Assembly: GCA_026625185.1 (NCBI GenBank)
Contig: CP113000.1
Coordinates: 2,712,651-2,744,650, forward strand
Reading direction: 5' to 3'
Length of the DNA stretch: 32,000 bases
From: Thermodesulfobacteriota bacterium
GTDB lineage: Bacteria > Desulfobacterota > WTBG01 > JAGOGO01
The notes beneath the pieces are model-generated. The model worked only from the letters and a program-made list of their open reading frames with translations, did no database searches and had not been told where the DNA came from. The stretch's first letter is position 1, and each line of letters begins with the position of its first letter. Made by a program: the position numbers and the translations under genes. Below are positions 11,196 to 28,293 of this stretch, in pieces.

Positions 11196-11223
11196 TTTCA
11201 ACTTTACTTGATGGAAAGGGCGT

Positions 11224-12447
11224 ATGGGAATTATAGTTCATAAATACGGAGGAACTTCAGTAGGCGATATTGAGAAGATAAAAAATGTTGCTCGCCGTTT
11301 GATAGATACCCAAAAAAAAAGACACGACGTGGTTTGTGTGGTTTCGGCAATGGCAGGAGAGACTGATAGACTGATTAAATTAGCCAATGACCTTACCGAT
11401 TCTCCTGACGCTCGAGAATATGATGTTTTGGTTGCTACCGGCGAACAGGTTTCTATTGCTCTTCTGGCGATGGCCATAATATCTCTCGGAGGAAAAGCGC
11501 GGTCTTTTACGGGGCATCAGGTAAAAATCCTTACGGATGAATCTTTTAGTAAAGCCAAGATCATGAGCATTGATACCAAAAGAATATTAAAAGAAGTAAA
11601 GGATGGATATATAGTTGTCGTAGCCGGTTTTCAAGGGGTGGATGAAGACGGGAATGTCACAACCCTGGGGCGAGGTGGGTCCGATACTTCCGCAGTGGCT
11701 TTGGCGGCTGCTTTGAATGCTGATCAATGTGATATTTATACTGATGTGGATGGTGTCTATACGGCTGATCCCAATATTTGCCCCAAAGCTAAAAAGCTAA
11801 AAAAGATTTCCTACGAAGAAATGCTGGAAATGGCCAGTCTTGGTGCTAAAGTTCTTCAAACGCGCTCCGTAGAAATAGCAAAAAAATTCAATGTCCCCAT
11901 CCATGTACGGTCATCTTTTTCCGAGGAGGAAGGCACTATGGTAACTAGAGAAGATGAAGAAATGGAAAAGTATGTGGTTTCCGGTGTCACCTACAACCGG
12001 AATGAGTCAAAACTTACTATTTCCGGTATCCCGGATGTACCGGGGGTAGCGGCAAAAATTTTTAAACCCATTGCTGACGCAAATATTGTTGTTGATATGA
12101 TAATCCAGAATGCAAGCAGTGCGGGGCACGCTGACCTTACCTTTACCGTTTCCAAAACCGATACCAAAAAAGCTTTAGAAATTTTAAAAGCCATAGGGAA
12201 AAAATTGGGCGCTAACCGAGTAAGCTCTGATGAAAATATAGCGAAAATATCGATTGTTGGTGTCGGCATGAAAAGTCATGCTGGTGTGGCATCCCAGTTT
12301 TTTTCGGTGCTGGCACATGAAGGAATTAACATTATGATGATCAGCACCTCGGAGATAAAAATATCCTGTGTGGTTGAGGAAAAGTATACGGAACTGGCAG
12401 TCAGGATTCTCCACGATACATTCCACCTATCTCCGGAAGAAAGATAG
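11224..12447 (+). CDS. lysC: Aspartate kinase (monofunctional, with C-terminal ACT domains)
   Basis: [39 protein letters not shown] and [14 protein letters not shown] motifs, with tandem ACT-like repeats at the C-terminus. Confidence 0.9.
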
Positions 12448-12474
12448 GTTGGTTTATTTTACTAAGAGGTCGGA

Positions 12475-14061
12475 ATGAAATCCTTAAAACTTTATGATAC
12501 AACCCTGCGTGATGGAACCCAAGCAGAAGATATCGCGTTTACCGTTGAAGATAAAATTCGCATTGCCAAAAAACTCGATGAGCTTGGCGTCCATTATATC
12601 GAGGGCGGCTGGCCAGGGTCCAATCCGCGGGATCTACAATTTTTTAATGAAATAAAAAATTATAATTTAATCCAGGCCAAAATTGCAGCTTTTTCCAGCA
12701 CAGCTCATCCCCACAATCCGCCGGATAAGGATAAAAACATCAAGGAAGTTCTTCGTGCTCAAACTCCGGTGGTAACAATTGTTGGTAAAAGCTGGGATAT
12801 TCATGTCCGAGAAGCATTAGGAATCACCCTCGAGAAAAATCTCCAAATTATATTTGAGACTATATCCTTTTTAAAAAAACATGTCTCGGAAGTCATGTTT
12901 GATGCGGAACATTTTTTTGACGGATTTAAAAAAAATCCTGATTATGCTCTCAAGATAATCAAGATAGCTACTTCTGCTCACGCTGATTGGGTTATTTTGT
13001 GTGATACTAACGGGGGCAGCATGCCCCATGAGGTTCAGGAAATAATTCGAATTGTAAAAAAAGAAAGGCTACCGGTACCCCTGGGAATCCATTGTCATAA
13101 TGATTCGGAAATGGCAGTAGCCAATTCTATTTTAGCGGTAAAAGAGGGGGTAACACAGGTACAAGGGACGATCAATGGATTTGGAGAACGATGCGGGAAC
13201 GCAAACCTTTGTTCGATTATTCCTAATTTGAGGTTGAAGTTGGGGATACCGTGTATATCGGATGAACAACTGACGAAGCTCAGGGAAACTGCCCGGTTTG
13301 TTTATGAACTGGCCAACTTTCAACCCCCAAACCATCAGCCTTTTGTTGGGAATAGCGCCTTTGCTCACAAGGGTGGGCTCCATGTCCATGCAATTCAGAA
13401 AAAATCTGAGACCTATGAACACATCAGGCCTGAGCTGGTAGGAAACCATCAAAGGGTTTTACTTTCCGATTTGTCTGGAAAAAGTAATATAATTTATAAA
13501 GCTAAAGATCTGGGCATCAAGGTAGGAAGTAAAGACCCGGTAGTCATTGCTGCCTTAGAAAAGCTTAAGAATCTGGAAAACCAGGGATATCAGTTTGAAG
13601 GCGCGGAAGCTTCTTTTGAGCTTATGCTTAAAAAAGCTTTAGGACTTCAAAAAAAATATTTTGATTTAGTTGGGTTTCGTATCATCAGCGAAAAAAGGAA
13701 AGAGGATGAAACACCCTTGGCCGAAGCTACCATTATGATCCAAGTTGGCGGCAAAATTGAACATACCGCTGCGCTGGGTAATGGTCCGGTTAATGCGCTC
13801 GACAATGCTATTCGAAAAGCCTTGGAAAAATTTTATCCTCAGCTTAAGGATATGGAACTCGTAGACTATAAAGTCCGGGTTCTTTCATCAGGCGAGGAAG
13901 GCACTGGTGCCAAGGTGCGGGTCTTGATTGAGTCAAGTGATAATCACGACAAATGGGGAACTGTGGGTCTTTCGGAAAATATTATTGAAGCAAGCTGGCA
14001 AGCATTAGTAGATAGCATTAATTATAAACTTTTAAAAGATGACCAGAAAAATGCAGAATGA
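12475..14061 (+). CDS. cimA: (R)-citramalate synthase (LeuA/CimA family with LeuA-dimer regulatory domain)
   Basis: [16 protein letters not shown] and GERCGNA motifs of DRE-TIM metallolyases. The 528-aa architecture and position directly after aspartate kinase recall the Geobacter-type CimA, as I remember it. The CimA versus LeuA assignment is by family resemblance only. Confidence 0.75.
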
Positions 14062-16128: not shown

Positions 16129-17400
16129 ATGGATGAAGCTGATACTTTTGTCTTAGAATTTTTATTAATTCTGGTTTTTCTTTTTTTTCTTCTTTTCTTT
16201 TCCATCATTGCTTCCACGCTCCATCGGCTTACCCCTTTTGATTTAAAACTTCTCAATGAACAACACGGAAAGAAAAGCAATATTTTCAACTTACTCGCCC
16301 ACAATAACCTTAAGGTTATTATTCCCATTTCTTTTGGAATCCAAACCTCTTTGCTTCTTGTTTTTATTCTTACCACCCACATGGTTATACAAAAGTTTGA
16401 TTCACATCCCCTGTTATGGACATTCGGTATACTGCTAGTTGTGAGCCTTTTTTTCTGCCAATTTATTCCGGGTCTGTTGGTCCACGTGAATCCAGAGAAA
16501 AAATTACTCAGGCTCCTTCCTTTGCTTTCCATCATTTTTCCGGTGGTAAAGTTTTTATCTTACCCCATTATTTCCAGTGTTGAACGAATGCGGGGCTCAA
16601 CCAAGGGCGCCGACGACGATGAGCCCGAAGTTATGGATAAAAAAATTCAAGCGCTCATCGATATTGGAAAAGAAGAGGAGGTGCTCGAAAAAGAGGATAG
16701 TGAGCTGGTAAAATCGGTCATAGAATTTGGGGATACCAAAGCCCGCGAAGTGATGACCCCTCGTTCTCAAATAATTGCTCTTCCGGAAAATGCCTCCATA
16801 AAAGAAGCCAAAGACCTTATGGTGAGGAAAAAACATTCACGGATTCCGGTATATCGTGAGAATTTAGATCAAATTATTGGGGTAATTTATGTCCGCAATT
16901 TGTTGACCAAGTTGGAAGAAAAAGAGTGGGATTCACCAATAAATGATTTGCTTTTACCGCCAGTATTCGTAACTGAAGAAGAACGTATCTCCGAAGTCTT
17001 CAAGGAAATGAAAGCCAAACGGTCATGGATGGTGTTTGTCAAAAATGAGTACGGCGGAGTTTCTGGTTTGATCACCATCAAAGGTCTCCTCGAGGAAATT
17101 GTCGGTGATATTGACGACGAAGACCAAACCAAACAACCGGAGATCATTCCCCAGGGAAAGAATCTTTTCCTGGTGTCGGGCAAGGCGGGACTTTACGAGC
17201 TTAGTGAGGCGCTGGGAATCACTTTAGCGGATGATGATTGCCAGACTATCGGCGGTTTGATAACGAAAGCAATCGGGCGGCTGCCCAAAAAGAATGACCG
17301 GCTTGAGGTTTCGGGATTGGTGATTACTATTTTAAATGTTGATTCAAGAAAAATTAATCGTTTGTTGGTTGAAAAACCTTTGGCCCCACCCTATGAGTAG
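16129..17400 (+). CDS. CNNM/CorC-family protein: DUF21 transmembrane domain + CBS pair + CorC_HlyC domain (putative Mg2+/Co2+ efflux, 'hemolysin-like')
   Basis: 423 aa with four N-terminal hydrophobic segments. The CBS-pair region contains AREVMTPRSQI and HSRIPVY. The C-terminal domain (..FLVSGKAGLYELSEALGITL..DDCQTIGGLI..LPKKNDRLEV.GLVITILNVDSRKINRLLV) is the CorC_HlyC transporter-associated domain. Confidence 0.85.
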   Translation: MDEADTFVLEFLLILVFLFFLLFFSIIASTLHRLTPFDLKLLNEQHGKKSNIFNLLAHNNLKVIIPISFGIQTSLLLVFILTTHMVIQKFDSHPLLWTFGILLVVSLFFCQFIPGLLVHVNPEKKLLRLLPLLSIIFPVVKFLSYPIISSVERMRGSTKGADDDEPEVMDKKIQALIDIGKEEEVLEKEDSELVKSVIEFGDTKAREVMTPRSQIIALPENASIKEAKDLMVRKKHSRIPVYRENLDQIIGVIYVRNLLTKLEEKEWDSPINDLLLPPVFVTEEERISEVFKEMKAKRSWMVFVKNEYGGVSGLITIKGLLEEIVGDIDDEDQTKQPEIIPQGKNLFLVSGKAGLYELSEALGITLADDDCQTIGGLITKAIGRLPKKNDRLEVSGLVITILNVDSRKINRLLVEKPLAPPYE

Positions 17401-17451: not shown

Positions 17452-18489
17452 TTGCTTAAAGGAATCGTACCACACTTATTTTTGCTGTTTATCTTCCTTG
17501 GTCTTTCAGGTTTGTTTGCCGCGTCTGAAATTGCTCTGGTCAATCTTACTCCTTCCCAGGTCCGCCGCATTGTTAAACAAGGCACGCGTCACAGCCGAAA
17601 TCTGGTTTTTTGGGAGCGGGAACCGGATAAGATCCTTATTACGATCGTTATTGTCACTAATCTGGTCAATATCGCTGCTTCGGCCACGACGGTTACTATT
17701 TTTGTCCATGCTATTCCCCACATCAGTGTGGATTCTGCTGCGGTGATCGCAACTTTTGTAACCACTTTGCTTATGCTTCTTTTCGGAGAGATTACTCCTA
17801 AACTCCTGGGAAAACGACACCCGGTTACGGTCTCCATTGGAGTTTTGCCCTTATTGCTTTTTTTGGGAAAGATTGTTCATCCGATAAGTAAAATCCTTTT
17901 GAAGTTGAGTCAAAGCATTTTGAGTTTTTTAGGCAAAGAAAGCCGGGAAATTTTCCCCACAGAATCAAATAGAGAGGAGATAAAAGCCCTTCTTGAATTA
18001 GTAAAGAAAGAGGGGGTAGTATCGGAAAGAGAAAATAAAATGCTCATGAGCATCTTACGGTTGGAAGAAACCAAAGTTCGGGATATCATGGTGAATCGAA
18101 TGAATATGATTTGCCTCGAAATAAACGCTTGTTATGAAACGGTACTGGAAACAGTCCGTAAAAGTGGATTTTCACGAATCCCCGTTTACGAAAAAACTTT
18201 TGAAAACATCAAAGGAATTTTAATGGCCAAGGATATTTTATCATGCTGGGACGAAAAAAGTTTCCAACTTTCTTCTCTTATGCGGCCGGCAAAGTTTATG
18301 CCTGAAGTGATCACCCTTGACCGCGCACTGCGGGAATTTATCAATACTCAAACCCACTTAGCAATTGTAGTCAATGAGTATGGTGAGGTTGAAGGATTAG
18401 TGACATTAGAGGATGTGATTGAAGAAATTACCGGAGAGATTCAGGATGAATTTGACATTGAAAGTATCTTGGTTAAGAAAATAAAGTAG
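17452..18489 (+). CDS. Second DUF21 + CBS-pair protein, lacking the CorC_HlyC C-terminal domain
   Basis: 345 aa with DUF21-type TM helices (AASEIALVNL..) and CBS-pair motifs VRDIMVNRMNM and FSRIPVY. It ends about 20 residues after the second CBS motif. TTG start. Confidence 0.8.
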   Translation: MLKGIVPHLFLLFIFLGLSGLFAASEIALVNLTPSQVRRIVKQGTRHSRNLVFWEREPDKILITIVIVTNLVNIAASATTVTIFVHAIPHISVDSAAVIATFVTTLLMLLFGEITPKLLGKRHPVTVSIGVLPLLLFLGKIVHPISKILLKLSQSILSFLGKESREIFPTESNREEIKALLELVKKEGVVSERENKMLMSILRLEETKVRDIMVNRMNMICLEINACYETVLETVRKSGFSRIPVYEKTFENIKGILMAKDILSCWDEKSFQLSSLMRPAKFMPEVITLDRALREFINTQTHLAIVVNEYGEVEGLVTLEDVIEEITGEIQDEFDIESILVKKIK

Positions 18490-18748
18490 AATAATCGCTT
18501 TTTTGTTTTTTTTCGCTGATTTCCTAAGAATCTGCCACCAGACCCCAATGCTTTTGATTTTAAGTCCTAAGGTATACTTGTAATTTAATCGTTCCTTTGC
18601 GGAGAAAACGATCTATCAATTCGAAAAAGATAACGACTTTAAATGGAAAGCGATATCCGAGATTTTCCTCTGTCGCTAAGTTTAGGTTTTTTTATGCTTC
18701 TGGTTTCTTGTTTCATGAGTAGATAAAAAAATTGTATTTATAAATTAT

Positions 18749-18773
18749 ATTAATTATAATTATTATAATTAAT
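18749..18773. promoter_or_regulatory. Perfect 25-bp AT palindrome upstream of the regulator/MTHFR cluster (candidate operator or UP-like element)
   Basis: ATTAATTATAAT (18749-60), T, ATTATAATTAAT (18762-73). The 12-bp arms are perfectly complementary. It ends 12 bp upstream of the TTGACA at 18786. Confidence 0.3.
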
Positions 18774-18785
18774 TTAAAAAAAATC

Positions 18786-18814
18786 TTGACAAACTAAAAT
18801 TTCTATAATAAATA
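18786..18814 (+). promoter_or_regulatory. Putative promoter of the 18848-28293 cluster
   Basis: TTGACA is at 18786-91. The obvious TATAAT (18804-09) is only 12 nt away, which is too close. TAAATA at 18809-14 gives a 17-nt spacing. The -10 assignment is therefore uncertain. Confidence 0.3.
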
Positions 18815-18847
18815 AAAATTAGAATATGATTTAAAGGATTAAAGTAT

Positions 18848-19423
18848 ATGGAAGAAATATTAACTGTTTTTCAAGCGTGCAAATATTGCAATGTTTCCCC
18901 ACAAACCATTATCAACTGGATTGAGTCCGGTCATATCAAAGCCTTTAAAACTGTCGGAGGACATCGGCGCATTAAAAAGACTGACCTTGAAGACTTCATG
19001 AAAAAACAGGGGATTCCTATTCCTGCAGTAGAATTAAAAGAAGAAAGAAAAAAAATTTTGATCGTTGACGATGACCCGATTATTGTTGAAACTATTGTTC
19101 AGGCGTTTGAAGAGGATGAATACAATTATGAGGTTATCTCGGCTGCGGATGGTTTTGAGGCTGGTTTGCAGGTTAACCATTTTAAACCCCACCTTATGAT
19201 TCTGGATATTATGATGCCGGATATCAAAGGGTACGAGGTTTGCAGAAAAATAAAAAGCAATAACGCGACGAAAGATATGAAAATTATTGTGTTGTCTGCG
19301 TATCTCGATGATGAAAAATTCAAAAAAATGAAAGAGTTCGGCGCTGACCTTTGTCTCACCAAACCATTGCCATTGCCTCAGTTAAAAAAGGAGGTAGCCC
19401 GATTGTTGGGTTTAATTTCATAA
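18848..19423 (+). CDS. Response regulator: N-terminal MerR-superfamily/excisionase-type HTH + C-terminal CheY-like receiver
   Basis: The N-terminus LTVFQACKYCNVSPQTIINWIESGHIKAFKTVGGHRRIKKTDLEDF is the HTH_17-type motif. The receiver has ILIVDDD, the phospho-acceptor context LMILDIMMPD, VLSA and TKP. No histidine kinase is present in this window. Confidence 0.8.
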   Translation: MEEILTVFQACKYCNVSPQTIINWIESGHIKAFKTVGGHRRIKKTDLEDFMKKQGIPIPAVELKEERKKILIVDDDPIIVETIVQAFEEDEYNYEVISAADGFEAGLQVNHFKPHLMILDIMMPDIKGYEVCRKIKSNNATKDMKIIVLSAYLDDEKFKKMKEFGADLCLTKPLPLPQLKKEVARLLGLIS

Positions 19424-19460
19424 AAAAACCGGTTTAATCTTTATAGGTATTGCAACCAAA

Positions 19461-20336
19461 ATGAAATTTAACGAATCGCTCAAAAAAGGTAAGTTTGTTG
19501 TTACTTCGGAAATTCATTCACCCCTTAATGATGAACCTCAGGAACTTATAAAAAGCTTGGAATTGGTGAGAGGTCGAGTAGACGGAATTACGGTGCCGGA
19601 AATTGACCTTGAGGGAGTTGTGGGAGATAAAATTTATACCTGTGCCCTTCTTAAACAGAATCGTTTTGAACCGATTTACCAAACGACTACGCGAGATAAA
19701 AACCGAATACAATTACAAAAAGATCTTCTCCTGGCGTATGAGGGAGGAGTAGAAAACCTTCTTGTTTTTACCGAAGATTACCGGATTACCGGAGATAGTC
19801 TCCAGGAAATGATGTTTTTTCATGTGGATGCAGGAAAATTACACTCGGTATTAGAGAACATCCGGGAGGGTCATACGTTAGAGAATAAGGAACTTCCTTT
19901 TAAAGCTGAATTTTTATTGGGTTCCGGGGTTGAGTCCGGATGGGGGAAAAATGTTCCTGAGCTGGAAATGAAAGAGATGGAAGAAATGCTTAAGGTCGGC
20001 ACCGGTTATTTTCTTACCACTCCGATTTTTGATCTCAACCTTTTTGAAAAGTTTATAAAACAGGTACAACCCTTTGGCGTTCCCATCATTGCTGAGGTAA
20101 TGATTTTGCGAACTGCCAGCATGGCTCAATTCCTCAATCGACATTTTAAATCGGGTTTGGTCCCGGAGTGGATGATAACAAAACTTACCAAATCACCTGA
20201 AAAGCAAAAGGCCAGCATTGAAATTTTTGCTGAAACGGTATCCGGCCTTAAAGATTTATGCCAGGGAATACATATAATAACTATCGGTGGTGAAGAAAAG
20301 CTACGATACTATTTAGATGCCGCCAAGTTAATTTGA
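19461..20336 (+). CDS. Divergent MetF-like (methylenetetrahydrofolate reductase family) protein
   Basis: 291 aa and colinear with the MetF at 27406-28293, roughly one third identical by eye. Shared blocks are KFVVTSE, VDGI, EPI.Q.T.RD.NR..LQ.DLL.AY, DL.LF..F and GVP/KV.A.V..L.SA.MA.F. Several conserved positions differ: LTGD becomes FTED, and ITDHQSS becomes VPEIDLE. Confidence 0.65.
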   Translation: MKFNESLKKGKFVVTSEIHSPLNDEPQELIKSLELVRGRVDGITVPEIDLEGVVGDKIYTCALLKQNRFEPIYQTTTRDKNRIQLQKDLLLAYEGGVENLLVFTEDYRITGDSLQEMMFFHVDAGKLHSVLENIREGHTLENKELPFKAEFLLGSGVESGWGKNVPELEMKEMEEMLKVGTGYFLTTPIFDLNLFEKFIKQVQPFGVPIIAEVMILRTASMAQFLNRHFKSGLVPEWMITKLTKSPEKQKASIEIFAETVSGLKDLCQGIHIITIGGEEKLRYYLDAAKLI

Positions 20337-20399
20337 TGGCGGTTGATTCATCGGAGTTAGGGAGAAGCTATCCATTATTTTTAAAGGGGGTATTTCCCT

Positions 20400-23054
20400 T
20401 TGGAAACCATTACCCTAACCATTGACGGAAAACCGGTTAGTTGTATACCGGGAACCAGTATTTTAAATGCAGCTAAAAAGCTTGGCATAAAAATTCCAAC
20501 CCTTTGCAATCATCATGCACTCCCGCCTTTTGGCGCTTGTCGACTTTGTTTGGTTGAGGATGAAAAAACCGGCCGGATCATGTCTTCCTGTGTTACCCCG
20601 GCTTTGCCGGACATGATTGTCCGGACGGACTCGCTGCGGATAAAAAATCACCGGACAAACATCATCCGCCTTTTGATGGCCGAGCATCCTGAATCTTGTC
20701 TTGTCTGTAACAAAGGCAACCGTTGTAAGCTGCGAGAGATTGCCGCTCAGTTGGGTATCAGTCAGACGGATCTTTATTCCATGCCTCATTATAAACCCCT
20801 TGAGCAGGCCAATCCCTTTATTGTCCGGGATTTAAATAAATGCATCCTATGCGGCACCTGTATTCGGGCCGACCATGAATTGGTTTTTGTGGGAGCAATT
20901 GATTATCACCAGCGGGGCTTTCACTGCCGGCCCGCTACTCTGCAAGACCGTCCTTTAGAAGATTCTCAATGTACCCTTTGTGGTACTTGCGTTTCCCTTT
21001 GTCCCACCGGCGCGTTATCAACAAGAAATACTACCTTTCTCGGTTCCCCTGAACAGGAGACATTATCTATCTGCGGCTTTTGTGGGGTTGGGTGTTGTGT
21101 TTCGTTGGGGATTGCCTTTGATCGGGTTGTGGAGAGCAACCCTTCTCACCAGGAAGGCACGGTAAATGGGTCCACGCTTTGTGTTCGCGGACATTTTGCG
21201 CATGACTTTTTAAACTCCGCTGACCGGCTAACCTCTCCTTTAATTCGTCAAAACGACACCAGGATTGCGACTTCCTGGGAGAATGCTTTGGACATTATTA
21301 CCGATCGGTTGTTTTCCCTTAAAAATATTTATGGCCCCCAAAGTATCGCATTTTTAGGTTCTTCAAAATGTACTAATGAAGAAAACTATCTTTTTCAGAA
21401 AATTGCCCGGGTATTTTTAAAAACAAATAACATTGACAATGGAGGTTATGGATCCGGCCGATCCGTTTGGAACGATTTAGTGCAAAAGATCGGGGGCAGT
21501 CGGGTCAACGCTCTTGCTGATCTTGAACATGCGGGAGCTATTTTTCTTTTAGGCGCAGATCCAACTCAATCGACTCCGGTAGTTGGCTATTATATTAAAA
21601 AAGCCGCCAAAAACGGAATTCCCTTAATTATTGCCGACCCGATAATAAACGAATTAGCTTCCTCTGCGACCCTTTGGCTACCCATTAATCCCCACACTGA
21701 GCTTACGCTTATAAATGGAATTTCTTCTTTTCTTTGCGAGCAGAATATGTGTGACACTCAGTTTATCGAGCAGTTTACGGAAGGGTTCAGCCTGTACCGT
21801 GAAAGCCTTGCTTCTATCAATCGTAAAAAGGTTTATGCGAAGATAGGGGTAGGGGAGGAAACATTAAAAAAGACCGCAACATTATTACAAAACAAAAAAA
21901 TCGCTTTTGTAGTGGGGGAAGGGGTAACGCTTCAAAAAAATAGTTCCCAATGCCTGGAAGCCATAGTAAACCTTTCCCTGATGACGGGAAGCCTGAGAGA
22001 CAAAGGGGGAGGACTTTATTTTTTGGCCCGAGAAAACAATCAGTGTGGCGCCGAGGATATGGGGAGCGTACCCGATAGCCTTCCGGGACATGTATCCATC
22101 AAAAACGACCCAGGTCGAAAAGAATGGGAAGGTGCGTGGGGCACCAAACTTTCACCTGATCCAGGGCTTAACCTCGTGCGCATGATCGAGGAAGCAGAAA
22201 ATGGGAATTTAAAAGCATTGTATATCATGGGAGAAAACCCTCTCCGGAGCCTCCCCCAGCCGGAGAAAGTGCGCAAGGCTTTAAGTAACGTAGAATTTAT
22301 CGTGGTGCAAGATATTCTTGATAATGAGACCGCTAAAATTGCCCATGTGATTTTACCGGGTGCGGCCCCCAGCGAAAAAGGAGGGTCGTTTACTAACCTT
22401 GAGGGGAAAATTCAGGGTTTTGAGCCGGCAGTCTCGCCTCCGGGTGATGCCAAACCTGACTGGCAAATTCTTGATTTGCTCTCCGTAAAGATGAAGAATC
22501 AGAAACCATTTGGTTCGCTTAAAAACATAAGAAAGGAGATCCGTAAGCTTATTCCTCTGTATGTTGATATTGGGAAAGAGGGGGCATGGATAAAACAAAC
22601 CGGCCAAACACGGTTTTTTACCTCTGGAAAGAAAGGCGATTTAATTCCCTTTTGTCCGGTCATTTCTATTGACTATGATGCTTCTGAAGCTGATTATCCT
22701 TTTACGGCTCTTTTAGGTTCGGTTCGTTTTCATCTGGGCAGCGGCACAAGAACCAGCCGCTCAGAGCGTATCCGGAATTTTGCTCATAAGGGCCATATCG
22801 AAATTTCTTTTCAGGATGCAAAAAAATTGACCCTTAATGCTGGGGATACTGTTCGCGTTATTTCTCCCTATGGAATCGTGGTAAGGAGAATCACGATAGT
22901 AAACACGTTAAGAGAAGGACTGATTTTTGTGCCGACGGGTTTTAATGCTAATGATGCTCGCAATCTAATCGAATTGTCTTTACTGGAAGAAGCCATTTCT
23001 CCCGGCTGGAAGGAGGTTCGGGTGAAAATTGAAAAGGTGGAGGAAAATTTTTAA
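20400..23054 (+). CDS. FdhA/NuoG-like multi-Fe-S protein with molybdopterin-oxidoreductase fold, lacking the catalytic Cys/Sec-His
   Basis: 884 aa. The N-terminal [2Fe-2S] region is C..CRLCLV..C. It is followed by the His-ligated cluster HPESCLVCNKGNRC and two ferredoxin motifs, CILCGTCIRAD and CTLCGTCVSLCP. Next come the MopB cluster CGFCGVGCCV...LCVRG, the MGD-fold body and the C-terminal beta-barrel (DAKKLTLNAGDTVRVISPYG). Where FDHs have NVD.CAR(V/L)(C/U)H, this protein has NIDNGGYGSGRS (21426-21467). Confidence 0.85.
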   Translation: METITLTIDGKPVSCIPGTSILNAAKKLGIKIPTLCNHHALPPFGACRLCLVEDEKTGRIMSSCVTPALPDMIVRTDSLRIKNHRTNIIRLLMAEHPESCLVCNKGNRCKLREIAAQLGISQTDLYSMPHYKPLEQANPFIVRDLNKCILCGTCIRADHELVFVGAIDYHQRGFHCRPATLQDRPLEDSQCTLCGTCVSLCPTGALSTRNTTFLGSPEQETLSICGFCGVGCCVSLGIAFDRVVESNPSHQEGTVNGSTLCVRGHFAHDFLNSADRLTSPLIRQNDTRIATSWENALDIITDRLFSLKNIYGPQSIAFLGSSKCTNEENYLFQKIARVFLKTNNIDNGGYGSGRSVWNDLVQKIGGSRVNALADLEHAGAIFLLGADPTQSTPVVGYYIKKAAKNGIPLIIADPIINELASSATLWLPINPHTELTLINGISSFLCEQNMCDTQFIEQFTEGFSLYRESLASINRKKVYAKIGVGEETLKKTATLLQNKKIAFVVGEGVTLQKNSSQCLEAIVNLSLMTGSLRDKGGGLYFLARENNQCGAEDMGSVPDSLPGHVSIKNDPGRKEWEGAWGTKLSPDPGLNLVRMIEEAENGNLKALYIMGENPLRSLPQPEKVRKALSNVEFIVVQDILDNETAKIAHVILPGAAPSEKGGSFTNLEGKIQGFEPAVSPPGDAKPDWQILDLLSVKMKNQKPFGSLKNIRKEIRKLIPLYVDIGKEGAWIKQTGQTRFFTSGKKGDLIPFCPVISIDYDASEADYPFTALLGSVRFHLGSGTRTSRSERIRNFAHKGHIEISFQDAKKLTLNAGDTVRVISPYGIVVRRITIVNTLREGLIFVPTGFNANDARNLIELSLLEEAISPGWKEVRVKIEKVEENF

Positions 23055-23539
23055 TGGAACCAAAAAAAATTGACTGGAATAAAATTGGGGCGGTGATTGA
23101 CAAACACCGGGATAATAAATGGGCCCTCATTCCCTTGCTCCAGGAGATTCAGGATGTTTGTGGGTTCATTCCTCCGGATTCAATAGAGCCGGTAGCTGAA
23201 TCTCTTCACCTATCACCAGCGCAGGTGCAAGGAGTCATAACTTTTTATGCGGGCTTCACCTTAAAACCCAAAGGCAAATATGTGATTCGGGTTTGCCGGG
23301 GAACCGCCTGCCATGTAAAAGGGGGCAGGGGAATCTTGAGATTAATGAAAAGAGAATTAGGGCTTCAAGAAGGTGAAACGAGTCCGGATTATCAATTCAC
23401 CCTGGAAACCGTAGCCTGCCTCGGGGCATGTTTTTTAGCTCCCACCATGATGGTTAACCGGACATATTTTGGTAAACTTTCCCCGCCAAAAGTTGCCAGT
23501 GTGTTATCTCAGTATCATAAAGATAAAGGGACTGAATAG
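23054..23539 (+). CDS. NuoE/HydC/FdsG-like thioredoxin-fold [2Fe-2S] protein
   Basis: 161 aa with the cluster ligands CRGTAC...CLGAC. The ATG overlaps the upstream TAA (TAATG at 23052-56). Confidence 0.9.
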   Translation: MEPKKIDWNKIGAVIDKHRDNKWALIPLLQEIQDVCGFIPPDSIEPVAESLHLSPAQVQGVITFYAGFTLKPKGKYVIRVCRGTACHVKGGRGILRLMKRELGLQEGETSPDYQFTLETVACLGACFLAPTMMVNRTYFGKLSPPKVASVLSQYHKDKGTE

Positions 23540-26500
23540 ATGGAACGGCTTCTTTCTATTGGACAAATGGAATGGTTGCGCAACAAGATTCGCTCGCAGG
23601 CGGAGAAACAGAAGAACGTCGTTCTCGTTTGTATGACCGGTTGTCGGGCGTACGGTTCCGCGGATGTAAAAAGCGCACTGGAACAAGAAGTTAAAAGTCA
23701 AGGACTTACCGATCAGGTGGAAGTACGTGCCACGGGTTGCCATGGATTATGTGCCAAAGCTCCGGTGATTGCCATCGAACCCTTGGGAATTCAATATCAA
23801 GAATTAAATTCGGATGACGCTGCCGAAGTTGTCTCGGTAACGTTGAAGAATAATCAGTTTATTGATCGCTTAGCATATAAAGACCCTCAGAGCGGAAAAC
23901 CAATTTTTTATCGAAGTCAGATTCCTTTTTACCTGAAACAAGAGAGAAGAGTTTTATCCAATTGTGGGAAAATTGATCCTACTAAAATCGACCACTATAT
24001 CGCCGCCGGCGGATATCAGGCTTTAGTTAAAGCCCTTTCCCGGATGACTCCGGATGAAGTGATTGAAGAGATAAGCGCCGCAAAATTAAGAGGCCGCGGA
24101 GGAGCCGGCTTTCCCACTGGGACGAAATGGAGGCTTGCCCGCCAGGCTGAAGGAAGTCCGAAATATATCGTATGCAATGCTGACGAGGGTGACCCCGGTG
24201 CTTTTATGGATCGGGCGATGTTGGAAGGTGACCCTCACGCGGTGCTCGAGGGAATGTTGATTGGTGCTTATGCCATGGGAGCAGAATATGGTTTTATTTA
24301 TGTGCGTGAGGAATATCCGATTGCGGTTGAACACCTTGCCAATGCTCTGAGACAAATGAACGAAATCGGCCTTTTAGGTGAAAATATTTTAGGAACCGGT
24401 TTTAATTTCTCTCTTGCTCTTAAAATGGGGGCTGGAGCATTTGTGTGCGGTGAGGAAACAGCGCTGATGGCCTCCATTGAAGGGAAACGAGGTATGCCGA
24501 AAGCACGTCCACCATTTCCTGCACAATCTGGATTAGATGGAAAACCAACCAATATAAATAACGTTGAGACCTGGGCTAATGTTCCTTTGATTATAAAAAA
24601 TGGAGCCGCGTGGTACCAACAGGTGGGAACAGAAAAAAGTAGCGGAACGAAGATTTTTTCCCTAGCGGGAAAAGTAAATAATACGGGCTTGGTGGAGGTA
24701 CCCATTGGGGTGAGTATCAAGGAAGTGGTCTTTGATATTGGCGGGGGTATACCTAAAGGAAGGAAATTTAAGGCAGTCCAGATGGGGGGGCCATCAGGAG
24801 GATGTGTTCCGGCGCAATACTTAAACTTTCCTATTGACTATGACACCTTACAGCGCATTGGGTCAATTATGGGTTCAGGCGGGATGGTCGTGATGGACGA
24901 AAACAATTGTATGGTGGAAATGGCTCGGTACTTTTTAAGCTTTACCCAGTCGGAATCCTGCGGAAAATGTGCTCCCTGTCGGCTGGGGACATCCCAGTTA
25001 CTGAAGATTTTGACCCTGACTACGCAGGGGAAGGGAAGGGTTGAAGATATTGAGACCATCAAGGAAATAGGGAAAACCATGATTGAAACTTCTCTCTGCG
25101 GTCTTGGACAGACCGCTCCCAAGCCTGCCCTTTCCACCGTCAAATATTTCTTGCATGAATATGAGGAACACATTTTAGAACACCGCTGTCCCGGGGCAAC
25201 CTGTGATTCTATGGTGATATCCGCGTGTCAGCATGCCTGTCCCGCGGGTATTGATGTCCCCAATTATGTTGCCGCTATCGCCAGCGAACACTATGAACAG
25301 GCAGTGGAAATCATCCGGGAAAGAAACCCCTTTCCTGCGGTTTGCGGACGGATCTGTGTTCATCCGTGTGAATTTAAGTGTCGTCGGGGCGAACTGGATG
25401 AACCGGTTGCTATTCGTTCTCTTAAACGGTTTGTCGCAGATTGGTATTTTGAGAATATCGGAATAGAAAAAAAACCCTTTCCCACTACTAGGAAACAAAA
25501 GGTAGCTGTGGTGGGAGCCGGTCCGGCTGGGCTAACCTGCGCCTACTTTCTGGCCAAAATGGGTTACAAAGTGACGGTTTTTGAGGCTCAACCAGTAGCC
25601 GGTGGAATGCTTCAGATCGCCGTGCCAGAGTTCCGTCTCCCCCGTGAAGTCATACAAAAGGAGATCGAATACATCGAAAGCTGCGGTGTTGACATTATAT
25701 ATAATTCACCGATTGATGCCCGGCATACGGTCAATGACCTTATGACAGAAGGTTATGATTCGGTTTTTATTGCAGCAGGAGCCCAGGCTAGTAAAAGAAT
25801 CAACATACCTGGTGAAGAAGAAGGCCTGGATGGTCTTTACTATGGTCTTCAATTCTTAATAGACATCAGATCCGGCAATGACTTGAAACTTAGAGGGAAA
25901 GTGCTGGTTCTGGGGGGAGGCAATGTCGCCATTGATGTGGCCAGAACTGCTCTCAGGGTTGGTGCCCGGGATGTTCAAATATACTACCGGAGAACCAGGG
26001 AGGAGATGCCGGCATGGGAAAAAGACATTGAAGAAGCCGTTGAAGAAGGAATCGTTATCAATTCTTCATGTGCTCCCAAGCAGATTATGTATAAGGATGG
26101 TAAAATCACCGGTATCGAATTTGTCCGAAGCAAGACCGTTTTTGATGAAGAGGGTCGTTCTTCTCTGATAGTTAATAAGGAGACAACTCAGATAGTGGAG
26201 GCCGATTCTATCATTATTGCCATCGGCCAAGCTCCTGATATCTCTTTTTTATCTAAAGACAGTCAGCTTGAGAGGGCCCTCTGGGGCAGCCTTGTGGTGA
26301 ACGAAAACAGTCTGGCTACCAACATTCCCGGCGTTTTTGCCGGGGGTGATTTTACCACTGGCCCAAGTATTGCCATAAACGCTATAGCCTTGGGGAGGAG
26401 AGCAGCCTTGGCTATAGCAAAATACCTGAGCGGGGAAAAGGGGAGAGTGGAGATTGCGGATGAAAAGACGGCTATGAAAGAAGATATTGGTTTAGCCTTG

Positions 26501-26713
26501 GAGGAAGAGAGCACAGAGGAAAAGCCGAGGGTCAAGACCTTGCTTGAAAAGCCAGCGGAGAGGATAACGGACTTTAGGGAAGTGGAGAAAGGATTCACCA
26601 CGAAGGATGCCAACAGGGAGGCTATGAGATGCCTCCGGTGCGATTTAGAAGAGAAACAGGAGGAAAAATATGATCAGGTCCATTACTCAAAAAAAAACAG
26701 AGGAAGAACTTGA
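23540..26713 (+). CDS. Fusion protein: NuoF/HydB-like NADH-FMN-[4Fe-4S] module + GltD/NfnB-like FAD/NAD(P)H oxidoreductase module
   Basis: 1057 aa. The N-terminal thioredoxin-like [2Fe-2S] region is CMTGC...GCHGLC. The NuoF core has GRGGAGFPTGTKW, GEETALMASIEGKRG and SCGKCAPCRLG...LCGLG. The GltD N-terminal Fe-S domain is ACQHACPAGIDVP...NPFPAVCGRICVHPCEFKCRRG. Two Rossmann motifs follow, KVAVVGAGPAGL and VLVLGGGNVAIDVA, then VFAGGDFTTGPS. The ATG directly abuts the upstream TAG. Confidence 0.85.
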   Translation: MERLLSIGQMEWLRNKIRSQAEKQKNVVLVCMTGCRAYGSADVKSALEQEVKSQGLTDQVEVRATGCHGLCAKAPVIAIEPLGIQYQELNSDDAAEVVSVTLKNNQFIDRLAYKDPQSGKPIFYRSQIPFYLKQERRVLSNCGKIDPTKIDHYIAAGGYQALVKALSRMTPDEVIEEISAAKLRGRGGAGFPTGTKWRLARQAEGSPKYIVCNADEGDPGAFMDRAMLEGDPHAVLEGMLIGAYAMGAEYGFIYVREEYPIAVEHLANALRQMNEIGLLGENILGTGFNFSLALKMGAGAFVCGEETALMASIEGKRGMPKARPPFPAQSGLDGKPTNINNVETWANVPLIIKNGAAWYQQVGTEKSSGTKIFSLAGKVNNTGLVEVPIGVSIKEVVFDIGGGIPKGRKFKAVQMGGPSGGCVPAQYLNFPIDYDTLQRIGSIMGSGGMVVMDENNCMVEMARYFLSFTQSESCGKCAPCRLGTSQLLKILTLTTQGKGRVEDIETIKEIGKTMIETSLCGLGQTAPKPALSTVKYFLHEYEEHILEHRCPGATCDSMVISACQHACPAGIDVPNYVAAIASEHYEQAVEIIRERNPFPAVCGRICVHPCEFKCRRGELDEPVAIRSLKRFVADWYFENIGIEKKPFPTTRKQKVAVVGAGPAGLTCAYFLAKMGYKVTVFEAQPVAGGMLQIAVPEFRLPREVIQKEIEYIESCGVDIIYNSPIDARHTVNDLMTEGYDSVFIAAGAQASKRINIPGEEEGLDGLYYGLQFLIDIRSGNDLKLRGKVLVLGGGNVAIDVARTALRVGARDVQIYYRRTREEMPAWEKDIEEAVEEGIVINSSCAPKQIMYKDGKITGIEFVRSKTVFDEEGRSSLIVNKETTQIVEADSIIIAIGQAPDISFLSKDSQLERALWGSLVVNENSLATNIPGVFAGGDFTTGPSIAINAIALGRRAALAIAKYLSGEKGRVEIADEKTAMKEDIGLALEEESTEEKPRVKTLLEKPAERITDFREVEKGFTTKDANREAMRCLRCDLEEKQEEKYDQVHYSKKNRGRT

Positions 26714-27323
26714 CCAGCTTTTAACTGGTATAGCCCGGATCTTTATCATTGGTTGCGGAACCTGTGTTACTATGACCCATACAGGAGGAACCCCCGAGGT
26801 AACCGAGATAAAAGAAAAATTGTTAAAAAAAGGAAAGTTGGTTACCGGGGATCTGGTTTTACCGGTTGCCTGTGACAACTTGACGGCCGAGGTCCTTCAT
26901 GAAAATCGATCTAAGATAGACCTGGCCGATGGACTCTTGATCCTGACGTGTGCTTTTGGAGTTCAGACAATTGCTCGCCAGGTAAAAAAAACGACTATTC
27001 CTGGCCTAGACACATTATTTATCGGAAAAGAGACTGGGCTTGGCCAATTCGACGAAATCTGCACCCAATGCGGAAGTTGCATTCTGGGTGAAACAGGAGG
27101 TGTTTGTCCGGTTACCTCTTGCCATAAGGGATTGGTTAATGGCCCTTGTGGAGGAACTAAAAATGGCAAATGTGAAATCGATGAAAAAAAAGATTGCGCC
27201 TGGACATTAATCTACAATCGCTTAAAGGATTTAAACCGTTTGGACTTAATGAAACGCTATCAAAAACCAAAAAATTTCCAAAGGGAACCTCGGCCTGGGA
27301 AATATTGGTTAACTCCAACATAG
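26670..27323 (+). CDS. metV: MetV-like Cys-rich protein (MTHFR C-terminal-domain family)
   Basis: 217 aa. CTQCGSCILGETGGVCPVTSCHKGLVNGPCGGTKNGKCEIDEKKDCAW matches the acetogen MetV / MTHFR_C pattern (CP..C.K.L.NGPCGG...G.CE....C.W). GGAGGA lies 5 nt upstream of the ATG. The gene overlaps the preceding one by 44 nt. Confidence 0.8.
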   Translation: MIRSITQKKTEEELDQLLTGIARIFIIGCGTCVTMTHTGGTPEVTEIKEKLLKKGKLVTGDLVLPVACDNLTAEVLHENRSKIDLADGLLILTCAFGVQTIARQVKKTTIPGLDTLFIGKETGLGQFDEICTQCGSCILGETGGVCPVTSCHKGLVNGPCGGTKNGKCEIDEKKDCAWTLIYNRLKDLNRLDLMKRYQKPKNFQREPRPGKYWLTPT

Positions 27324-27405
27324 AAAAATTAAATAATACTTTATAATCATTTTGTTTTATTGGATTATTAAAGTAAATTATCATTTAATAAAGAAAGGAG
27401 ACTTG

Positions 27406-28293
27406 ATGGTTTCCTTATTTAAAAAAGCATTGGAATCAAAAAAGTTTGTAGTAACTTCAGAAGTTGCACCACCAAAAGGTACCAATCTGGAAAAAATTAA
27501 ACACCATATAGAACTACTCAAAAATAAAGTAGATGGGATCAACATTACTGACCACCAAAGTTCAGTAATGCGTTATCCGTCGTTAGGCGGTGCGCTATTA
27601 GTCAAGGAGATGGGGGGAGAGCCAATTCTTCAAATGACTTGTCGTGACCGAAACCGGCTTGCGCTTCAAGCGGATCTTCTTTTCGCTTATAGTCGAGGAA
27701 TCAGCAATGTTCTTTGTTTAACAGGAGATTCGATTCTCATGGGGGATCACAAAGAGGCAAAAGGGGTATTTGATATGGATTCAAGTCAATTAGTGGCAAC
27801 AATCAGAAAGTTAGAAAAGGGAAAAGACCTTGGAGGCAATGATCTTGACGGGGCGGTTTCATTTTGCGCTGGCGCAATTGTAACCCCGGAAGCAAATCCC
27901 CTTGAGCCGCAGTTGATAAAATTTGAAAAAAAAGTAGAGGCAGGAGCAGAGTTCATCCAAACGCAAGCAATTTATGATCTTGACCTTTTTAAACATTTTA
28001 TGGAGTATGCCGAGCAATTTCCGGTAAAAGTTCTGGCAGGGGTTATTCTTTTAACCTCAGCCCAGATGGCTCGGTTTATGAACAAAAATGTGGCCGGGGT
28101 AAACGTTCCCCAAAATTTAATCGATGAGTTGTCTACAGCCCCAAAAGGGCGGGCAATAGAAAAGGGAATCGAAATCGCGGGCCGTATGATAAAAAAAATT
28201 AGAAAACAAAAGTTGTGTACGGGAGTGCACATCATGGCCATCGGAAGGGAAGAGTTGGTTCCGGAAATAATGTCAGCCGCCGAATTAGGTTAA
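27406..28293 (+). CDS. metF: Methylenetetrahydrofolate reductase, MetF (acetogen/anaerobe short type)
   Basis: KFVVTSEVAPPKG, ITDHQSS, QMTCRDRNR, LCLTGD and QAIYD blocks are typical of MetF proteins that partner with MetV. AAGGAG lies 6 nt upstream of the ATG at 27406, so this is preferred to the ORF-track start at 27352. Confidence 0.85.
   Translation: MVSLFKKALESKKFVVTSEVAPPKGTNLEKIKHHIELLKNKVDGINITDHQSSVMRYPSLGGALLVKEMGGEPILQMTCRDRNRLALQADLLFAYSRGISNVLCLTGDSILMGDHKEAKGVFDMDSSQLVATIRKLEKGKDLGGNDLDGAVSFCAGAIVTPEANPLEPQLIKFEKKVEAGAEFIQTQAIYDLDLFKHFMEYAEQFPVKVLAGVILLTSAQMARFMNKNVAGVNVPQNLIDELSTAPKGRAIEKGIEIAGRMIKKIRKQKLCTGVHIMAIGREELVPEIMSAAELG

Follow-up and report, generated by a model that had tools for sequence, protein, structure and literature searches.

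This analysis concerns a seven-gene cluster in a 32,000-nt stretch of contig CP113000.1 (positions 2,712,651-2,744,650), here called the window; cluster coordinates are window positions. The genes encode, in order, a response regulator, a divergent MetF paralogue (MetF2), an FdhA/NuoG-like Fe-S protein (FdhA-like), a NuoE-like protein, a NuoF::GltD fusion, MetV, and MetF (Table 1). Probably these genes make up a single operon that encodes a multi-subunit methylenetetrahydrofolate reductase (MTHFR) of the MetFV type, in which an electron-input module derived from Bfu enzymes would couple NAD(H), NADP(H), and methylene-/methyl-tetrahydrofolate (THF).

The locus

An earlier account of this DNA (the sequence-only reading) had described seven co-oriented genes with tight junctions, and both are visible in the raw sequence. 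All seven open reading frames (ORFs) lie on the + strand. The MetF2 gene is separated by 37 nt from the regulator gene and by 63 nt from the FdhA-like gene; the FdhA-like and NuoE genes share a TAATG overlap (23052-23056); the NuoE gene abuts the fusion gene through TAG/ATG (23537-23542); the fusion gene and metV overlap by 44 nt (26670-26713); and metV and metF lie 82 nt apart. This last gap implies that metF starts at ATG 27406, which indeed follows an AAGGAG Shine-Dalgarno sequence. The resulting protein has 295 aa, as do most orthologues (one has 296 aa); the mechanical ORF list had placed the start at TTG 27352 instead. Searches of Pfam and NCBIfam return every family that had been named for these products.

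Table 1. Features of the cluster, in window positions
Feature	Coordinates	Strand	Evidence and remarks
Upstream intergenic region, presumed cluster promoter region	18490..18847	+	358 nt, AT-rich; raw sequence
Response regulator, N-terminal HTH_17 (MerR/excisionase-type), C-terminal receiver	18848..19423	+	Pfam HTH_17 3.4e-17, Response_reg 1.1e-25
MetF paralogue (MetF2), divergent MTHFR-fold protein	19461..20336	+	Pfam MTHFR 56.8 bits (weak)
FdhA/NuoG-like Fe-S protein (BfuA-like)	20400..23054	+	TTG start; Fer2_4 / NADH-G_4Fe-4S_3 / Fer4 / Molybdop_Fe4S4 / Molybdopterin / Molydop_binding
NuoE/HydC/BfuC-like thioredoxin-fold [2Fe-2S] protein	23054..23539	+	Pfam 2Fe-2S_thioredx (PF01257) 8.4e-50; NCBIfam NuoE 1.5e-42
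NuoF::GltD fusion	23540..26713	+	1057 aa; 2Fe-2S_thioredx + Complex1_51K + NADH_4Fe-4S + Fer4_20 + Pyr_redox_2
Fusion, N-terminal part, aa 1-559, Bfu-type B subunit	23540..25216	+	Domains, PDB matches, predicted cofactor sites
Fusion, GltD/NfnB-like part, aa 560-965	25217..26434	+	Pfam Fer4_20, Pyr_redox_2; predicted two [4Fe-4S], flavin adenine dinucleotide (FAD), NADPH-type Rossmann site (YRRT)
Fusion, C-terminal tail, aa 1006-1036, invariant RCLRC	26555..26647	+	Fer4_20 profile positions 1-29, E = 7.4e-5
MetV, Fe-S/Zn small subunit of MetFV-type MTHFR	26670..27323	+	Pfam DUF5981/MTHFR_C (PF12225) 2.4e-35
MetF, catalytic methylene-THF reductase subunit	27406..28293	+	Pfam MTHFR (PF02219) 147 bits, 8.7e-43

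The NuoF::GltD fusion and NuoE

The amino-terminal part of the fusion resembles the B subunit of Bfu enzymes. Residues 28-560 match NiFe-HydB (7t2r_B, 2.4e-216), HydB (8a6t_B and 7q4v_B), StnB (8oh5_B), and NfnB (9n5u_B). Three cofactor sites are predicted in addition to the NADH site treated below: the B5 [2Fe-2S] cluster (Cys31/35/67/71), the B1 [4Fe-4S] cluster (Cys474/477/480/520), and B2 (Cys457, His544, Cys550, and Cys555). These ligands, those of B2 included, are invariant in an alignment of 13 fusions (33-81% identity). The B2 stretch, EYEEH544ILEHRC550PGATC555, matches EYEAHIRDKKCPAKSC of StnB and HydB in every column of the alignment, and the motif itself is matched exactly by 'EYEAHIRDKKCPA..C' of the same proteins; the pattern 'H..(K/R)C P...C' in 8oh5_B, 8a6t_B, 7q4v_B, and 7t2r_B falls on His544, Cys550, and Cys555. 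Alignments to the non-bifurcating NuoF and FdsB do not reach as far as the motif. The B2 histidine is named as a Bfu hallmark, absent from non-bifurcating homologues, in the NfnABC structure paper (PMC12018979). By these matches, aa 1-559 are a BfuB up to and including the B2 His/Cys site. The NuoE protein is a BfuC.

Beyond B2 the fusion takes a different course. Characterized Bfu enzymes continue into a ferredoxin-like domain with two CX2CX2CX3CP clusters (B3/B4), which forms the ferredoxin docking site (PMC12018979). Homology of the fusion to HydB and StnB stops at about aa 560, where GltD (Fer4_20 plus Pyr_redox_2) begins, and a cysteine inventory of the whole protein contains no CX2CX2CX3CP motif. 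These two observations exclude a canonical Bfu B subunit with a ferredoxin-like carboxyl-terminal domain. Instead, a GltD module sits in place of the B3/B4 domain, and the same replacement is found in every fusion-family member compared. Pfam detects no ferredoxin-type domain in NuoE or MetV.

The GltD half (residues 560-1037) matches 9bov_A (6e-108), 8oh5_C (1e-100), Thermococcus (Tsi) NfnA 9n5u_A (5e-99), and NfnB 4ylf_B; in 9bov_A and 8oh5_C the matching part is chain residues 103-569. Its Fer4_20 domain is circularly permuted, with profile positions 29-110 at aa 560-638 and positions 1-29 at aa 1008-1036. The RCLRC of this tail lies roughly 370 residues past the remaining Fer4_20, its Cys1031 and Cys1034 are invariant in the 13-fusion alignment, and the tail has its homologue in 9bov_A in the linker ('RCLEC') that joins GltD to NuoG. 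Between them, the two pieces would supply eight ligands, enough for two clusters.

Two separate nicotinamide sites had been proposed for this protein, and the motifs agree with that proposal: GRGGAGFPTG and NADEGDPGAF form the predicted NADH site at the flavin mononucleotide (FMN) of NuoF, and the GltD half carries an NADPH-type motif, YRRTREEMPA, in common with StnC-type chains, which bind NADPH, and with NfnA. Residues 561-868 of the StnC-type chains (8oh5_C, 9bov_A) match the FdhA-like protein. Together, FdhA-like, NuoE, and NuoF::GltD thus comprise the domain inventory of StnABC/NfnABC, joined at a different fusion point.

The FdhA-like protein

The FdhA-like protein begins with a [2Fe-2S] and [4Fe-4S] wire and continues into molybdopterin-type domains that lack the catalytic residues. 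Its Fer2_4, NADH-G_4Fe-4S_3, Fer4_Nqo3/Fer4_7, and Molybdop_Fe4S4 domains are those of the BfuA-type A1/A2 region. The best PDB matches are FdsA 9wxb_B (1.7e-125) and 6tg9_A; the score against TIGR01591, 'formate dehydrogenase subunit alpha', is 483 bits, under the cutoff of 666.

The sequence-only reading had considered this subunit inactive, and the active-site residues bear it out. Cys386-His387 of Rhodobacter capsulatus FdsA align with Ser352-Gly353, and the motif around Arg587, PLRGQNNVQG, reads FLARENN, with the arginine gone. Identical losses occur in all five complete orthologues from MetVF-linked loci that were compared (L001, L083, L085, L086, and L007), whereas FdhA proteins encoded beside other NuoF::GltD fusions keep the arginine motif together with selenocysteine (Sec; in-frame TGA, CARL*HS; L009, L014a/b, and L054) or cysteine (L015). 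The loss of Sec/Cys-His and arginine in the five orthologues effectively rules out an active formate dehydrogenase.

What has been kept is the wiring: the [4Fe-4S] cysteine motif of Molybdop_Fe4S4 and the amino-terminal clusters persist in the orthologues. Across six complete loci, mean pairwise identity is 76% in the Fe-S amino terminus and 60% in the Mo-type domains, so that no region encoded by the cluster is less constrained than these (the other proteins range from 76 to 86%). In L002, a complete genome assembled from a metagenome (CP070710.1), the gene is cut to a 215-aa ORF (8684-9331) with Molydop_binding only; MetF2 and the regulator are missing there, and NuoE-fusion-MetV-MetF is intact. 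The FdhA-like protein is thus a catalytically dead Fe-S scaffold rather than a formate dehydrogenase.

MetV and MetF

MetV and MetF are intact, and are the only catalytic partner present in the cluster. The unfused, 217-aa MetV has GLVNGPCGG (the NGPCGG motif) and multiple cysteine motifs; it is the sole DUF5981 protein present. MetF is the most conserved product of the cluster (86% mean pairwise identity) and has equivalents of what we take to be the E. coli residues Glu28, Asp120, and Gln183 (numbering checked internally).

The metV ATG follows an AGGAGG Shine-Dalgarno sequence inside the fusion gene. The 44-nt overlap is peculiar to the window: the fusion has 1057 aa versus 1039-1043 aa in its five closest orthologues, its carboxyl terminus is 14-18 residues longer, and metV begins 2-10 nt past the stop codon in those five. 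For the metV-metF spacer, an alignment of seven loci (the window, L001, L083, L085, L086, L087, and L002) reveals the Shine-Dalgarno sequence as the only conserved RNA or regulatory element. The spacer of L001 has short direct repeats (AAGGC..., GCGCCTTGAGCCCTGCGC).

The claim that MetFV is joined here to an Stn/NuoEFG-like module, and not to Hdr/Mvh or RnfC2, holds on the domain and PDB matches given above. In addition, a domain scan found no Hdr (CCG, HdrA), MvhD, or FlpD domain in any ORF of the 32-kb window.

Synteny and phylogeny

Loci for comparison came from a fusion-alignment scan of species-representative genomes and from look-ups of individual homologues. They comprise 23 loci with full-length or near-full-length fusions; L084 duplicates L083, and L088 is frameshifted.

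The order FdhA-like, NuoE, fusion, MetV, MetF recurs, complete or up to the contig end, in 10 further contigs from Desulfobacterota and one Dehalococcoidia. Among fusions at least 53% identical to that of the window, MetV lies directly 3' in 10/10 loci (L001-L005, L007, L083, L085, L086, and L087), followed by MetF on every contig that extends far enough; the frameshifted L088 also has MetV-MetF directly 3' of the fusion. Among fusions with 44-49% identity, MetVF accompanies none (0/13 loci). The carriers of MetVF-linked loci are metagenome-assembled genomes (MAGs): Desulfobacterota, including a Desulfomonilaceae, and the one Dehalococcoidia (L007). The junctions are tight at the places where contacts between subunits are to be expected. 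NuoE lies directly 5' of the fusion in 7/8 complete orthologous loci, the junction ranging between an overlap of 4 nt and a gap of 5 nt, and the distance from fusion to metV is at most 10 nt in 6/8 (the overlap in the window, 2-10 nt in the five others).

In a neighbor-joining tree, the MetVF-linked fusions are monophyletic (192/200 bootstraps), and their nearest neighbors are FdhA-linked fusions. The fusions without MetVF are followed by one of three partners: the [FeFe]-hydrogenase HydA; a HoxU-like Fe-S protein of 235-240 aa; or a Sec/Cys FdhA. The 13 such fusions come from Bacteroidota, Planctomycetota, Zixibacteria, Omnitrophota, Bacillota, Chloroflexota, a Promethearchaeota (Loki) MAG, and others. 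Since sister fusions stand beside catalytic FdhA or HydA (or HoxU-like genes), the module seems always to accompany a catalytic partner. The MetVF-linked fusions form one clade inside a broad, uncatalogued NuoF::GltD family. The simplest history is one in which a NuoF::GltD complex of the formate dehydrogenase type ceased to act on formate, retained the FdhA body as an Fe-S scaffold, and took in MetFV.

Where sequence suffices for comparison (L001, L002, L083, L085, and L086), the genes outside the cluster differ between loci. Synteny in independent contigs with different flanks, together with the monophyly of the clade, rules out the chance juxtaposition that had been named as a possible refutation. 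The same evidence, with the sister fusions beside true formate dehydrogenases or hydrogenases, gives a dedicated MetFV-coupled complex good genomic support. The proposed seven-gene unit survives in part. Its core, NuoE-NuoF::GltD-MetV-MetF, is universal; MetF2 and the regulator are lineage-specific, and L002 has only the FdhA-like remnant.

Several further observations concern these loci. The fusion loci without MetVF, which lack the HydB ferredoxin-like domain and stand beside NuoE, are L006, L008, L009, L011-L016, L024, L032, L033, and L055. L005 has split ORFs (6729-8228 and 8071-9465; 9992-12616 and 12579-13199), in L088 an ORF of 924 aa precedes one of 122 aa, and L003 has two internal stops; these interruptions of the fusion gene, the FdhA-like gene, or both may be assembly errors or pseudogenes. 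Among the best 120 database matches, close homologues of the fusion are 77-83% identical. Matches to the fusion and to MetF2 are mostly from metagenomes and Desulfobacterota-type MAGs.

Accessory and flanking genes

MetF2 is only about 29-32% identical to MetF. It keeps equivalents of what we take to be Glu28 and Asp120 of the E. coli enzyme (numbering checked), with threonine for Gln183, and the (R/T)GD flavin/folate motif (RGD) reads TED. Among the best 120 database matches, its homologues are 76-94% identical and 290-293 aa long, the named ones being Desulfobacterota-type MAGs; such conservation points to purifying selection. Against solved structures it finds a weak partial match to eukaryotic MTHFR alone (E = 5.8e-5), which says nothing about function. 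MetF2 is missing from the more distant MetVF-linked loci (L002-L005 and L007), and hence appears to be an accessory, lineage-specific subunit. Possibly it is a non-catalytic or folate-binding partner of MetF.

The regulator (84% mean pairwise identity) lies directly 5' of the cluster also in L001, L083, L085, L086, L087, and L088. In these close relatives the order is constant: PAS-HisKA kinase, HTH_17-receiver regulator, MetF paralogue, FdhA-like, NuoE, fusion, MetV, and MetF. The gene preceding the regulator there encodes a PAS-HisKA-HATPase kinase. This gene is missing upstream in the window, so the regulator is an orphan here. In place of the kinase, the window has a pair of paralogous transporters of the CNNM/CorC type (16129-17400 and 17452-18489) and then the 358-nt AT-rich spacer. 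The regulator's domain order is inverted for a response regulator, with the DNA-binding domain amino-terminal and the receiver carboxyl-terminal. The Dehalococcoidia locus L007 has an unrelated two-component set in the same position: a GAF-HisKA_3 kinase, a receiver-GerE protein, and a double-receiver protein.

Consensus scans for transcription signals were uninformative. They returned 21 promoter-like sites versus 19.3 expected after shuffling, and 14 terminator-like sites versus 11.6 expected; the promoter-like matches in 18490..18847 are of consensus level and do not exceed that expectation; no convincing + strand terminator appeared within any cluster gap. These scans neither support nor break the operon reading. 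No Rfam family was found within the cluster, nor in the rest of the window besides two tRNA genes: tRNA-Gln(CTG) (3182-3254) and tRNA-Met(CAT) (3509-3583), which lie between a divergent deacetylase gene and tilS.

The flanks hold housekeeping genes of gram-negative type (TilS, FtsH, FolP, PdxJ, Nnr, TsaE, aspartokinase, and CimA/LeuA), with the two CNNM/CorC proteins upstream and RseB, anti-sigma, and sigma-E downstream on the opposite strand. Nearest homologues are from Desulfatiglandaceae, Desulfobacteraceae, and 'Deltaproteobacteria' MAGs.

Proposed mechanism and alternatives

The most likely function that we infer is flavin-based coupling of the methylene-/methyl-THF pair to NAD(H) and NADP(H), and perhaps to ferredoxin (Fd) too. 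All of the proteins would form a single soluble complex, in which the FMN 'flavobicluster' of NuoF/NuoE would be the point where three redox couples meet. FMN would serve NAD+/NADH, the FAD of GltD would serve NADP+/NADPH, and the flavin of MetF would serve methylene-/methyl-THF (about -200 mV); electrons would reach this last flavin by way of MetV and probably of the FdhA-like Fe-S wire. Under physiological conditions NADP+/NADPH has a potential of about -370 to -380 mV, well under that of NAD+/NADH. The latter has been given as about -280 mV (PMC9304861).

Working reductively, the complex would oxidize two NADH. From each pair, one electron would run downhill by the B1 branch (FMN, FdhA-like wire, MetV, MetF, methylene-THF), and the other would enter a lower-potential branch ending in NADP+ on GltD or, with less support, in ferredoxin. 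For NADP+, this second route would lead through the NuoE [2Fe-2S] cluster (FMN, GltD clusters, FAD, NADP+). Working oxidatively, as in acetate-oxidizing sulfate reducers, NADPH or reduced ferredoxin would help to push the endergonic step in which methyl-THF is oxidized with NAD+. Methylene-/methyl-THF lies at about -200 mV versus -320 mV for NAD, and methyl-THF oxidation has been called an unsolved 'enigma' of the reverse Wood-Ljungdahl pathway in syntrophic acetate oxidizers (PMC6295475, PMC11201294). One specific chemistry is offered tentatively, as possible though less likely than not: GltD took over both the position and the role of the ferredoxin domain, MetFV replaced formate dehydrogenase, and the complex catalyzes the ferredoxin-independent reaction 2 NADH + NADP+ + methylene-THF <-> 2 NAD+ + NADPH + methyl-THF.

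Several points weigh against a coupled complex of this kind. The physical association of the proteins and the activity of the complex are read wholly from sequence and synteny. MetFV alone is active in clostridia, where it is ferredoxin-dependent, and StnABC is stand-alone in Sporomusa, so co-expression without a complex is conceivable. Most loci, the seven aligned ones among them, separate metV from metF by 81-152 nt (L002 by 110 nt; the frameshifted L088 by 690 nt), where an internal promoter is conceivable; in acetogens, metV and metF are reported as adjacent or overlapping (PMC8515935). The window itself contains no Wood-Ljungdahl genes within its 32 kb. Because L002 has only a remnant of the FdhA-like gene, an Fe-S wire through that protein is not obligatory. 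Because the B3/B4 domain is missing, canonical Bfu chemistry is not simply transferable. Finally, the canonical A branch serves a mid-potential substrate whereas methylene-THF would be a high-potential one, so that the energetic mapping is itself inferred. The bifurcation architecture claimed by the sequence-only reading stands as far as the Bfu core through B2; with the B3/B4 ferredoxin site gone, classical ferredoxin coupling is less obvious.

Other arrangements of the same parts can be envisaged. Ferredoxin might after all be a substrate, as Yi et al. (PMC8515935) assumed, in a bifurcating MTHFR that catalyzes 2 NADH + Fd(ox) + methylene-THF -> 2 NAD+ + Fd(red) + methyl-THF; the docking site would then lie elsewhere than in B3/B4, and GltD would be an alternative NADPH entry or a regulatory site. 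The intact Bfu core (FMN, B1, the NuoE [2Fe-2S] cluster, and B2) fits this scheme, all characterized Bfu enzymes use ferredoxin (PMC12018979, PMC9304861), and the analogous Moorella MetFV-HdrABC-MvhD is thought to bifurcate. We consider it somewhat unlikely: GltD replaces B3/B4 throughout the fusion family; NfnABC binds ferredoxin between the B3/B4 domain and the NfnC carboxyl-terminal domain; neither NuoE nor MetV provides a ferredoxin-type domain; and an enzyme with four substrates is unparsimonious. Bifurcation might also be absent altogether, with NuoF and GltD as two uncoupled entry ports of an NAD(P)H-dependent MTHFR like MetFV-RnfC2 of A. woodii. Such an enzyme is harder to reconcile with the strict conservation of the Bfu-specific B2 site and the amino-terminal [2Fe-2S] cluster, since non-bifurcating NuoF/FdsB lack B2, and with carriers among the Desulfatiglandales and Desulfobacteraceae that are described as running the pathway oxidatively (PMC13343851, PMC11887813), where the uncoupled barrier would be +120 mV. 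On its side are the A. woodii type itself, which is NADH-dependent and has an RnfC-type NADH/FMN subunit that feeds MetFV (PMC8515935), the loss of the ferredoxin domain, and the exergonic reduction of methylene-THF by NAD(P)H, for which coupling is unneeded. We judge this version unlikely.

Slightly more doubtful still is the notion of two co-located, co-regulated enzymes: a shuffled transhydrogenase of the Stn/Nfn type and an ordinary ferredoxin-dependent MetFV (type II). A module without B3/B4 cannot perform the Stn reaction in the known way, even though StnABC and NfnABC with the same domain inventory are stand-alone enzymes. In C. ljungdahlii MetFV is active by itself (PMC8515935), separate regulation could be accommodated in the metV-metF spacer and in the 63-nt gap, and the terminator and promoter scans do not discriminate; set against this are the association of the fusion clade with MetVF in 10/10 loci, the fusion-metV distance of 2-10 nt or overlap in most of them, the integral catalytic partner (HydA or FdhA) in the equivalent position of sister clades, and L002, which lacks the FdhA-like wire yet keeps NuoE-fusion-MetV-MetF. 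A formate-linked enzyme, in which an active FdhA-like subunit couples formate oxidation to the reduction of NAD(P)+ or methylene-THF, is highly improbable. Its best structural matches are NAD-dependent FdsA proteins, it scores 483 bits against TIGR01591, and in a metagenome study the formate dehydrogenase listed for the Wood-Ljungdahl pathway is a major subunit whose locus tag adjoins those of NuoE, NuoF, and MTHFR (PMC13343851). These points yield to the replacement of Sec/Cys, His, and Arg in five MetVF-linked orthologues but not beside sister-clade fusions, to the score below cutoff, to the weak constraint on the Mo-type domains, and to the genome with a remnant only. A single MetFV-type complex with a Bfu-derived input module for both nicotinamides is thus the reading that we retain as probable.

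Significance

No redox step of the Wood-Ljungdahl pathway is less well understood than the methylene-/methyl-THF step. Acetogens either waste its energy or save it by a still-unproven bifurcation; organisms that run the pathway in reverse include complete-oxidizing sulfate reducers, syntrophic acetate oxidizers, and Dehalococcoidia. The cluster provides a concrete, testable candidate for the coupling device at this step, and would widen the range of Bfu-type modules to take in a folate enzyme and a form that lacks the ferredoxin domain.

Were the NADP-coupled chemistry correct, autotrophs would save the 'wasted' energy of methylene-THF reduction as NADPH, and acetate-oxidizing sulfate reducers and Dehalococcoidia would use NADPH to pull methyl-THF oxidation. 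This would answer how the reverse Wood-Ljungdahl pathway passes the methyl-THF step. The NuoF::GltD family would then be an unrecognized Bfu branch that uses NADP(H) in place of ferredoxin, spread over many phyla and including an Asgard archaeon.

There is a consequence for annotation, too. In the supplementary table of a 2026 study of Desulfatiglandales MAGs, the 'formate dehydrogenase major subunit' given for the Wood-Ljungdahl pathway is OBLMFN_00865; it is beside NuoE (_00870), NuoF (_00880), and MTHFR (_00890/_00895), and the tags are not connected with one another (PMC13343851). Judging by locus-tag adjacency alone, OBLMFN_00865 is probably the dead FdhA-like gene, and its call a false positive. 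By the same token, metabolic reconstructions from MAGs probably take the FdhA-like protein for a working formate dehydrogenase and the fusion for 'NuoF', in each case probably in error.

Relation to known systems

The sequence-only reading took this to be an undescribed type of MTHFR complex. That claim falls, since the arrangement was already noted by Yi et al. in 2021 (PMC8515935). They described NuoEFG homologues 5' of metFV in Dethiosulfatarculus sandiegensis, reported the arrangement as widespread in Desulfobacterales and Chloroflexi, and named it the 'X type' or Group III, a 'hypothetical pentamer MetFV-NuoEFG' with bifurcation presumed (PMC8515935). The window cluster shares the NuoE/F/G homologues directly 5' of metV-metF, and the taxa match (Desulfobacterota MAGs plus a Dehalococcoidia MAG). 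By gene arrangement and taxa, we count it as a further member of this X type, which was named from genomes alone, with its MetF and MetV putatively in phylogenetic Group III. The other half of the claim, that no complex of identical composition has been characterized, stands within the searchable literature: full-text searches found no biochemical or structural work on a MetFV-NuoEFG complex after 2021, and a paper of August 2026, which puts its enzyme in 'Type II' of the existing type scheme, does not mention the X type.

The 2021 treatment is one paragraph, and includes neither the GltD fusion, the lost ferredoxin-like domain, the dead FdhA, the MetF paralogue, nor the regulators. Our comparisons add four things: the module is a rearranged Stn/Nfn-Bfu unit with GltD for the ferredoxin domain; its FdhA is catalytically dead; an accessory MetF paralogue and two-component control go with it; and the MetVF-linked fusions fall into the single clade described above. 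A 2022 Bfu census collected its B subunits through a domain architecture of which the ferredoxin-type domain is part, and never mentions MetF or methylene-THF (PMC9304861); given that requirement, the NuoF::GltD type seems to have escaped it. The system is a fifth MTHFR architecture, uncharacterized but with good genomic support.

The closest relatives of the module are StnABC and NfnABC (8oh5, 9bov, 9n5u), whose chains are also the best PDB matches of the GltD half. They share with it a NuoE-like C subunit; a NuoF-like B subunit with an amino-terminal [2Fe-2S] cluster, FMN, B1, and B2; an FAD/NADPH domain of the GltD/NfnL type that carries two [4Fe-4S] clusters; and an Fe-S domain of the NuoG/Fdh type that lacks a Mo active site. 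However, they carry GltD at the amino terminus of A, rather than at the carboxyl terminus of B as in the window, and have the B3/B4 ferredoxin site that the window module lacks. They are also three-gene units without a further catalytic partner, whereas the window-type genes are always with MetVF, and their A subunit differs from that of the window, which has a full-length FdhA-like Mo-domain fold and an amino-terminal [2Fe-2S] cluster.

FdsABG and the NuoEFG part of complex I offer the same E-F-G trimer, and the FdhA-like protein is closest to FdsA in sequence. Unlike them, the window proteins lack Cys/Sec-His and Arg, and the NuoF part gains the amino-terminal [2Fe-2S] cluster, B2, and GltD. 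No membrane-arm genes of complex I are present with the window cluster.

Two established complexes share the MetFV core. MetFV-HdrABC-MvhD of Moorella thermoacetica and Sporomusa ovata ('6S', or type IV) likewise joins it to a module from a bifurcating family; this enzyme is NADH-linked and suspected of bifurcation with an unidentified second acceptor. It differs in having the HdrA FAD, HdrBC, and MvhD where the window has NuoE, NuoF::GltD, and FdhA-like. RnfC shares the Complex1_51K (NuoF/RnfC) fold, with FMN and Fe-S, and the A. woodii enzyme is not known to bifurcate or to have the Bfu B2 site. In that complex, MetFV-RnfC2 of Acetobacterium woodii ('3S', or type III), an RnfC-type NADH-binding subunit feeds the MetFV core; RnfC2 is a MetV-like::RnfC fusion, with no NuoE, GltD, or NuoG/FdhA-like subunit. 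The Complex1_51K domain of the window is instead of the NuoF/HydB type, with a NuoE partner, and is not part of a MetV-like::RnfC fusion.

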